Source of the DNA: Escherichia coli
Lineage (GTDB): Bacteria; Pseudomonadota; Gammaproteobacteria; Enterobacterales; Enterobacteriaceae
Assembly (NCBI RefSeq): GCF_024502345.1
Contig: NZ_JALDNN010000001.1
Direction: 5' to 3' (one strand)
Length of the DNA: 64,000 nt
A program made the translations under genes and the position numbers. Numbering within the stretch: the first letter of the stretch is position 1; the number at the start of each line of letters is the position of its first letter. A model generated the notes under the pieces. The model ran no database searches. It worked only from the letters and a program-made list of their open reading frames with translations, and was not told the origin of the DNA. Positions 23,355 through 23,521 of the stretch are shown here, piece after piece.

Positions 23355-23521
23355 CTTTTCCTCTCCCTTCATTTTTGATGCGAAGCATAATACCCGCAAA
23401 GTTAAATAACCGACAGTCCTGCACCAGGACGTATCCCTTAATTGTGCATAGTCGCAACAGCATGCACAATTAAGGGATAGCCTTATTGAACACCCGGAGT
23501 GGTTGCGGGTGAGGAGGAACA

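Follow-up and report, generated by a model that had tools for sequence, protein, structure and literature searches.

A perfect palindrome between yajQ and panE of Escherichia coli as a probable RNase III processing hairpin and a possible pair of mirror-image promoters

The yajQ-panE spacer and its palindrome

The genes yajQ and panE of Escherichia coli diverge from a 167-bp spacer, which is bracketed by the start codon of yajQ at 23354 (minus strand) and that of panE at 23522 (plus strand); positions refer to the window, i.e., the whole 64-kb stretch of DNA that was analyzed. The spacer is 100% identical to positions 444516-444682 of K-12 MG1655. A preliminary description of this DNA, made from the sequence alone, pointed out an 18-bp perfect inverted repeat and a second, shorter dyad between the two divergent starts. 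Reanalysis revealed that the arms of the repeat are 100% complementary (18/18 pairs) and 12 nt apart, that GTCCTG-cac-CAGGAC is present at 23416-23430, and that the positions relative to both start codons agree. The palindrome consists of the following parts.

23432-23449, not strand-specific: left arm TATCCCTTAATTGTGCAT, the 3′ arm of the hairpin in yajQ-sense RNA
23450-23461, not strand-specific: loop of 12 nt, the sole asymmetric part, reading GCUGUUGCGACU in yajQ-sense RNA
23462-23479, not strand-specific: right arm ATGCACAATTAAGGGATA, the 5′ arm of the hairpin in yajQ-sense RNA

The statistics bear out the earlier statement that such a dyad exceeds chance. No longer perfect inverted repeat exists in the 64-kb window, where the next unrelated one has 11-nt arms, and first-order Markov simulations of the window (n = 30) gave shorter maxima, with a longest inverted repeat of 9-14. 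The 18-mer occurs in the 64 kb solely as these two arms, against an expectation of 0.02. RNA folding of 60 nt in the yajQ sense gave -30.7 kcal/mol (z = -7.5 versus shuffles), and the hairpin is formed by RNA from either strand. The predicted yajQ-sense fold contains approximately 23 stacked pairs, namely the 18 perfect pairs, two extra G-C pairs inside the 12-nt loop and three flanking pairs, and thereby offers the ~20 bp or more of near-continuous double-stranded RNA (dsRNA) that characterizes RNase III substrates.

One option raised in the preliminary description was an uncharacterized small palindromic element. A search of complete E. coli genomes revealed one locus per genome in 5,424 of 5,426, the "2 places" reported for each genome being the two strands of one palindrome. 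In 5,346 of the 5,424 genomes (98.6%), the hairpin and the 6 nt flanking it at either end show no difference. With a single copy and almost no variation in E. coli, the palindrome does not qualify as a REP-type element, and the option is refuted as far as a dispersed element is concerned. The palindrome resembles REP/BIME, ERIC and other dispersed palindromes in being intergenic, in belonging to the range of imperfect to perfect dyads and in spanning a few tens of bp; it differs from them in its single copy, in its place between divergent promoters instead of at 3′ ends, and in having no Rfam match. A scan of 22800-24000 against Rfam 15 at a permissive E-value returned nothing relevant, the one hit being a chance snoRNA match (E = 7.2).

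A consensus scan found no terminator-like site on either strand of the spacer. An intrinsic terminator is ruled out, the stem being A+T-rich with no T run after it. The 3′ spacer between yajQ and yajR contains no inverted repeat at the settings used; the REP40a element named for yajQ in one paper is separate from the dyad.

Probable RNase III processing of the long yajQ leader

Transcription start sites (TSSs) mapped by others place three yajQ promoters, here designated P1 to P3, and a panE 5′ end around the palindrome. The features on which the following argument is built are listed below; the Cappable-seq values are those of the individual entries for this locus.

23620/23621, minus strand: distal yajQ TSS (P3), inside panE (99 nt in), found in three datasets (U00096.2 443640/1)
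23628-23633, minus strand: -10 hexamer TACAAT of P3, Escherichia-specific, from a synonymous Cys codon in panE
23434, minus strand: second yajQ primary TSS (P2), an A three nt inside the left arm's outer end (Cappable-seq 443827, score 43.2, enrichment 3.9)
23416-23430, minus strand: short dyad, GUCCUG-gug-CAGGAC in RNA, a 6-bp stem-loop by folding, 4 nt from the 5′ end of the P2 transcript
23387-23392, minus strand: -10 hexamer TATTAT of P1, inside GGTATTATGC, invariant in 17 aligned Enterobacteriaceae spacers
23379, minus strand: proximal yajQ TSS (P1), with a 25-nt leader downstream of the hairpin (Cappable-seq 443882, score 63.7)
23477/23478, plus strand: panE mRNA 5′ end at the right arm's outer edge, from a single source (Conway overlap end 443783, as quoted in Table S1 of PMC7373196)
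23481-23623, not strand-specific: overlap of 142 nt between the long yajQ leader and the panE mRNA, dsRNA in vivo, ending at the hairpin edge
23464, minus strand: RNase III-dependent coverage dip (NC_000913.3 444573, mapped via the 100%-identical alignment), inside the right arm near the stem apex

P3 was reported by Kim 2012 (443640, 29 reads, 267-nt UTR), appears among the Cappable-seq entries for the locus (443640, score 35.9), and corresponds to the start at 443641 in the Conway operon map as quoted in Table S1 of Huang et al. 2020 (PMC7373196). Its leader of 266-267 nt carries the hairpin. The palindrome is therefore transcribed, within the long yajQ leader and not within the panE mRNA, which lacks the hairpin since its 5′ end lies at the right arm's outer edge. 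Of the readings offered in the preliminary description, a stable stem-loop in a 5′ untranslated region thus holds only for the long-leader yajQ isoform starting inside panE, and fails for panE.

The preliminary description knew of no factor assigned to the dyad. RNase III cleavage at this site had in fact been published in 2017; a role for a regulator or an operator, treated in the next section, found no support. From the RNA-seq coverage of an rnc deletion relative to the wild type, Gordon, Cameron and Pfleger (mBio) listed the site, in Table 1 and the supplement, as "Intergenic (panE-yajQ) 444573" in NC_000913.3 coordinates, with a coverage ratio of rnc mutant over wild type of 32-48 (PMC5371410). 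Purified RNase III cleaves in vitro transcripts of the site, and 5′ RACE assigned the cuts to a long stretch predicted to be double-stranded (PMC5371410). It was also noted there that a complementary hairpin is possible on either strand. The half-life of yajQ mRNA, measured over all isoforms, of which the transcripts from two of the three promoters lack the hairpin, is approximately 6 min in the wild type versus approximately 3 min in the rnc mutant, and cleavage in the 5′ UTR was found to stabilize the transcript; the remaining 5′ hairpin was proposed by Gordon et al. to slow RNase E (PMC5371410). The in vitro cleavage, the rnc-dependent coverage, the half-life change and the TSSs come from the work of others, and the coordinate mapping, structure, copy number and phylogenetic distribution from the present analysis.

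Excision of the apical stem-loop would be expected to abolish coverage at the position of the mapped dip, 23464. An RNase III-trimmed long leader would begin near 23434, leaving the short dyad close to its 5′ end, and the P2 transcript, which starts at 23434, opens with AUAC followed by the same stem-loop. We infer that the short dyad acts as a stabilizing 5′ hairpin, in agreement with the 5′-hairpin suggestion of Gordon et al. (PMC5371410).

Like the RNase III leader hairpins of pnp, rnc and adhE, the palindrome provides a nearly perfect dsRNA of about two turns within a 5′ leader, and its rnc-dependent cleavage alters mRNA stability. RNase III cleavage destabilizes the message at pnp and rnc, and activates at adhE. 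In contrast to the pnp and rnc messages, the yajQ message is stabilized by cleavage. The yajQ hairpin further differs from all three in its unusually perfect stem (18/18) and in coinciding, as DNA, with two mapped TSSs. Taken with the published cleavage, the palindrome is probably the hairpin already described for RNase III processing of the long yajQ leader, rather than an orphan operator or a novel family of repeats.

A second source of dsRNA adjoins the hairpin. The yajQ-panE locus, with its 142-nt overlap of divergent transcripts, is present in both dsRNA catalogues. In the IP-dsRNA data of Lybecker 2014, the "Divergent" locus MS-115 (443638-443836, window 23623-23425) covers the palindrome, and its seed (443638-443780) stops at the palindrome edge. 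Huang et al. 2020 (PMC7373196) reported a p19-captured dsRNA cluster at 443437-443776 with 21/22-nt duplexes at 443700-443777. As the seed and the p19 products end at the palindrome edge, as does the 142-nt overlap, the long yajQ leader has two adjacent RNase III substrates, first an intermolecular one, the duplex with panE mRNA, followed by an intramolecular one, the hairpin. The mechanism described in those two studies is intermolecular, whereas the palindrome adds an intramolecular substrate next to the overlap.

Because dsRNA also forms in vivo from the 142-nt overlap, the rnc phenotype could be partly intermolecular. A stronger version of this idea, in which RNase III acts mainly on the duplex between the yajQ leader and panE mRNA and the hairpin is incidental, would account for the overlap, the p19-captured duplexes, the dsRNA cluster and the MS-115 locus, but appears unlikely. 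Purified RNase III cleaves single in vitro transcripts, with ends in the predicted long helix; the dip at 444573 lies inside the hairpin, past the end of the overlap at the palindrome's first nucleotide; and the p19 cluster ends at 23485, just short of the hairpin, so that duplex and hairpin are adjacent but distinct substrates.

Possible overlapping divergent promoters in the palindrome

Reflection about the palindrome center (23455.5) relates the TSS of P2 to the panE 5′ end, the mirror position of 23434 being 23477; the panE 5′ end of the Conway map, at 23478, is two nt in from the outer end of the right arm. The 45 nt upstream of each start are identical except for the loop and read TTGTGC-17-CACAAT-6-A. 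The putative promoter hexamers that follow from this arrangement are listed below.

23464-23469, minus strand: putative P2 -35 TTGTGC, in the right arm
23441-23446, minus strand: putative P2 -10 CACAAT, in the left arm, read relative to the TSS
23442-23447, plus strand: putative panE -35 TTGTGC, in the left arm, with a 17-nt spacer to the -10
23465-23470, plus strand: putative panE -10 CACAAT, in the right arm

This layout suggests that the same 48 bp comprise two fully overlapping, mirror-image promoters of the sigma-70 type, one per strand, in which each putative -10 appears to overlap the -35 of the opposite promoter with a 1-bp offset. A consensus promoter scan of the spacer gave no hits at the scan threshold because the hexamers are weak, matching the consensus at 7 of 12 positions; the promoter reading therefore rests on the mapped TSSs.

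The two putative promoters correspond to overlapping divergent promoters in the classical sense, since the TSSs flank a 48-bp block that holds both putative hexamer sets. They fall outside the class of symmetry-based bidirectional promoters described by Warman et al., which is defined by divergent TSSs 7-29 bp apart and shared or overlapping -10 elements (bioRxiv 10.1101/2020.01.31.928960; NAR 2026, PMC12825309). The palindrome and that class are alike in their pseudo-symmetrical DNA and divergent initiation, and the binding modes of polymerase would be mutually exclusive in both; in the palindrome, by contrast, the distance is 43-44 bp between the TSSs and 24 bp between the putative -10 elements, each of which lies over the opposite -35 instead of being shared.

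As an observation on the neighboring DNA, the site of the E. coli short dyad CCTGGTGCAGGAC is still occupied by AGTATAGCG or AATTATAGCG in Citrobacter, Enterobacter and Salmonella, and the complement of these sequences, read in the panE sense, is a good -10 (TATACT or TATAAT). It seems from this comparison that an ancestral panE -10 has been lost in E. coli and that panE may now be started from the palindrome.

The preliminary description also considered a high-affinity operator for a dimeric regulator, and perfect dyad symmetry lying over mapped TSSs is what would be expected of an operator co-regulating panE and yajQ through both promoters, with NtrC or an unknown dimer or tetramer as candidates. 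An NtrC gSELEX peak of mid-strength (41% intensity, in vitro) is present in the spacer, centered near 23415, and the pentamers TGCAC/GTGCA recur in both arms and in the short dyad. However, the half-site centers are 30 bp apart, unlike those of usual dimer operators, and 23355-23521 contains neither the NtrC 17-mer TGCACY-N5-GGTGCA at up to 3 mismatches, only isolated TGCAC pentamers being found, nor a sigma-54 site TGGCAC-N5-TTGCW (-24/-12) at up to 2 mismatches. The NtrC peak has no locus-specific follow-up in the gSELEX paper, a literature search for the sequence string of the palindrome found no paper quoting it, and in Citrobacter the outer arm positions vary, the promoter-like core alone being conserved. 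The operator proposal is thus left without support and is considered quite improbable.

A near-consensus NtrC-type dyad, TGCATTTAGTGGGTGCA, is found elsewhere in the window, at 33357-33373, with 1 mismatch to TGCACY-N5-GGTGCA. It lies approximately 30 bp from the ribD/ribE NtrC gSELEX peak (433,872, corresponding to window ~33389); the panE/yajQ peak has no such site.

Origin and variation of the spacer

The spacer was compared across eighty yajQ loci of other species plus four fetched via YajQ homologues. It measures 167 bp in Escherichia and 174 bp in all sampled Citrobacter (C. werkmanii, C. youngae, C. freundii and Citrobacter sp. FP75), as opposed to 121-129 bp in Salmonella, Enterobacter, Leclercia, Lelliottia, Pseudescherichia and others. 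An insertion of approximately 48 bp, restricted among the loci sampled to Escherichia and Citrobacter, makes up the palindrome block. E. coli and E. albertii share the same perfect stem, and perfect pairing is confined to Escherichia; the Citrobacter stems contain 4-5 mismatches, and the sequences of C. youngae and C. freundii fold no better than shuffled sequence. Across the eight Escherichia and Citrobacter sequences, the TTGT/ACAAT core alone is invariant (8/8) and the outer stem decays. Covariation in the same eight sequences is slight and inconsistent: pairing holds in 78.5% of cells, 4 pairs are doubly changed and 5 are broken, with a double compensatory change at the two apical pairs. 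A conserved RNA structure is claimed for Escherichia and no further.

These data bear on the possibility that the palindrome is a neutral by-product, produced by inverted duplication or by template-switch "correction" of a quasi-palindrome, without selected function and with RNase III sensitivity as a side effect. A lineage-restricted insertion of ~48 bp, visible in the spacer lengths given above, a stem that is imperfect in Citrobacter and perfect in Escherichia only, and covariation with more broken than doubly changed pairs are all compatible with such an origin. On the other hand, the palindrome has stayed the same in E. albertii and in 98.6% of the 5,424 E. coli genomes, whereas the spacer next to it diverged. 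The common E. coli SNPs (23395, 23412) fall between the hairpin and yajQ, as do all five spacer differences between E. coli and E. albertii; the latter comparison, with 0 differences in the 48 nt versus 5 in the other 119 nt, is statistically not decisive. The measured effect on yajQ mRNA stability (PMC5371410) and the use of the palindrome by mapped TSSs also argue against neutrality. As an account of the palindrome as it stands, a functionless by-product is very improbable, but a template-switch event is a plausible explanation of how the palindrome arose and is compatible with later function.

The -10 of the distal promoter is Escherichia-specific as well. The position of the P3 -10 hexamer reads TGCAAT in Salmonella, Enterobacter and Leclercia, TGCAGT in Citrobacter and TACAGA in Klebsiella. 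TACAAT and TGCAAT differ by a synonymous Cys codon in panE (TGT versus TGC), and a silent site in panE thus appears to create an intragenic promoter. Since the TACAAT -10, like the fully paired stem, is confined to Escherichia, long leader and perfect helix occur together. This distribution suggests that the promoter-like core is older and that the longer pairing is linked to trimming by RNase III.

A working scheme can be outlined from these observations. The promoter inside panE (23620/23621, -10 TACAAT) would yield a yajQ-sense transcript with a 267-nt leader, which would cross the panE start in antisense and then the palindrome. The 18 perfect pairs and a few flanking and intraloop pairs would form about two helical turns of dsRNA, and cutting of this stem by RNase III would remove the panE-antisense part of the leader. 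The product would be a shorter yajQ mRNA with the GUCCUG/CAGGAC stem-loop in its 5′ region, decaying approximately twice as slowly. At the DNA level, one mirror promoter would fire toward panE (~23477/8) and the other toward yajQ (23434). We infer three parts of this scheme, namely the promoter hexamers, the role of the short dyad and the co-evolution of perfect pairing with the distal promoter.

It is tentatively proposed, as a possibility held at somewhat less than even confidence, that the palindrome is a dual element. As DNA, it would be a mirror promoter pair; as RNA, it would be an RNase III site only on read-through from the Escherichia-specific third promoter made by the synonymous panE codon, and the perfect pairing would have been fixed together with that promoter to trim the panE-antisense leader. 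New in the present analysis is the presence of two apparent mirror-image promoters in the same DNA as a known RNase III hairpin, so that one short palindrome may act both as DNA, in overlapping divergent promoters, and as RNA, as a processing site, in an arrangement that is a recent lineage-specific insertion. If the mirror-promoter reading is true, the catalogue of symmetry-driven divergent promoters would be extended to wider spacing, and the locus would provide a compact natural case for polymerase competition and antisense-leader trimming.

Several further observations were made on the surrounding sequence. The window differs from K-12, and identity of at least 99% over 22800-24500 (1.7 kb) was found in only 20 of the 5,424 genomes; the 167-bp spacer is nonetheless 100% identical to K-12 and many other strains. 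The primer site of Gordon et al. reads ggcagatggtt in the window versus gacagatggtt in K-12.

Independent insertions of IS3-family elements in the 167-bp spacer are present in two E. coli genomes. In NZ_CP019256.1, an IS1203-like element (end TGAACCGCCCCGGG) directly follows ATGCACAAT, with its junction at 23470|23471; it splits the right arm of the hairpin and parts the putative panE -10 from the panE start site. In NZ_LT883142.1, the break caused by an IS3-family element is near 23408, between the short dyad and the proximal yajQ promoter.

Other lineages carry additional DNA of their own in this spacer. The Klebsiella-type spacer (two loci) is unrelated, with a length of 191-192 bp, approximately 67 extra bp and a fold of about -62 kcal/mol for the whole spacer, and an Enterobacter-like MAG has a spacer of 170 bp with a different insertion of approximately 45 bp. 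The yajQ-panE spacer seems prone to lineage-specific insertions.

Finally, at six loci of other genera, GGTATTATGC is found in the loop of an inverted repeat of 6-12 bp, approximately 20-25 nt upstream of the yajQ ATG, as exemplified by GCGTTGCA-ggtatta-TGCAACGC. In E. coli, only TGCG...CGCA is left of this repeat around the P1 -10 (~23380-23399). The repeat may represent a conserved operator, or else a leader structure, at the proximal yajQ promoter.
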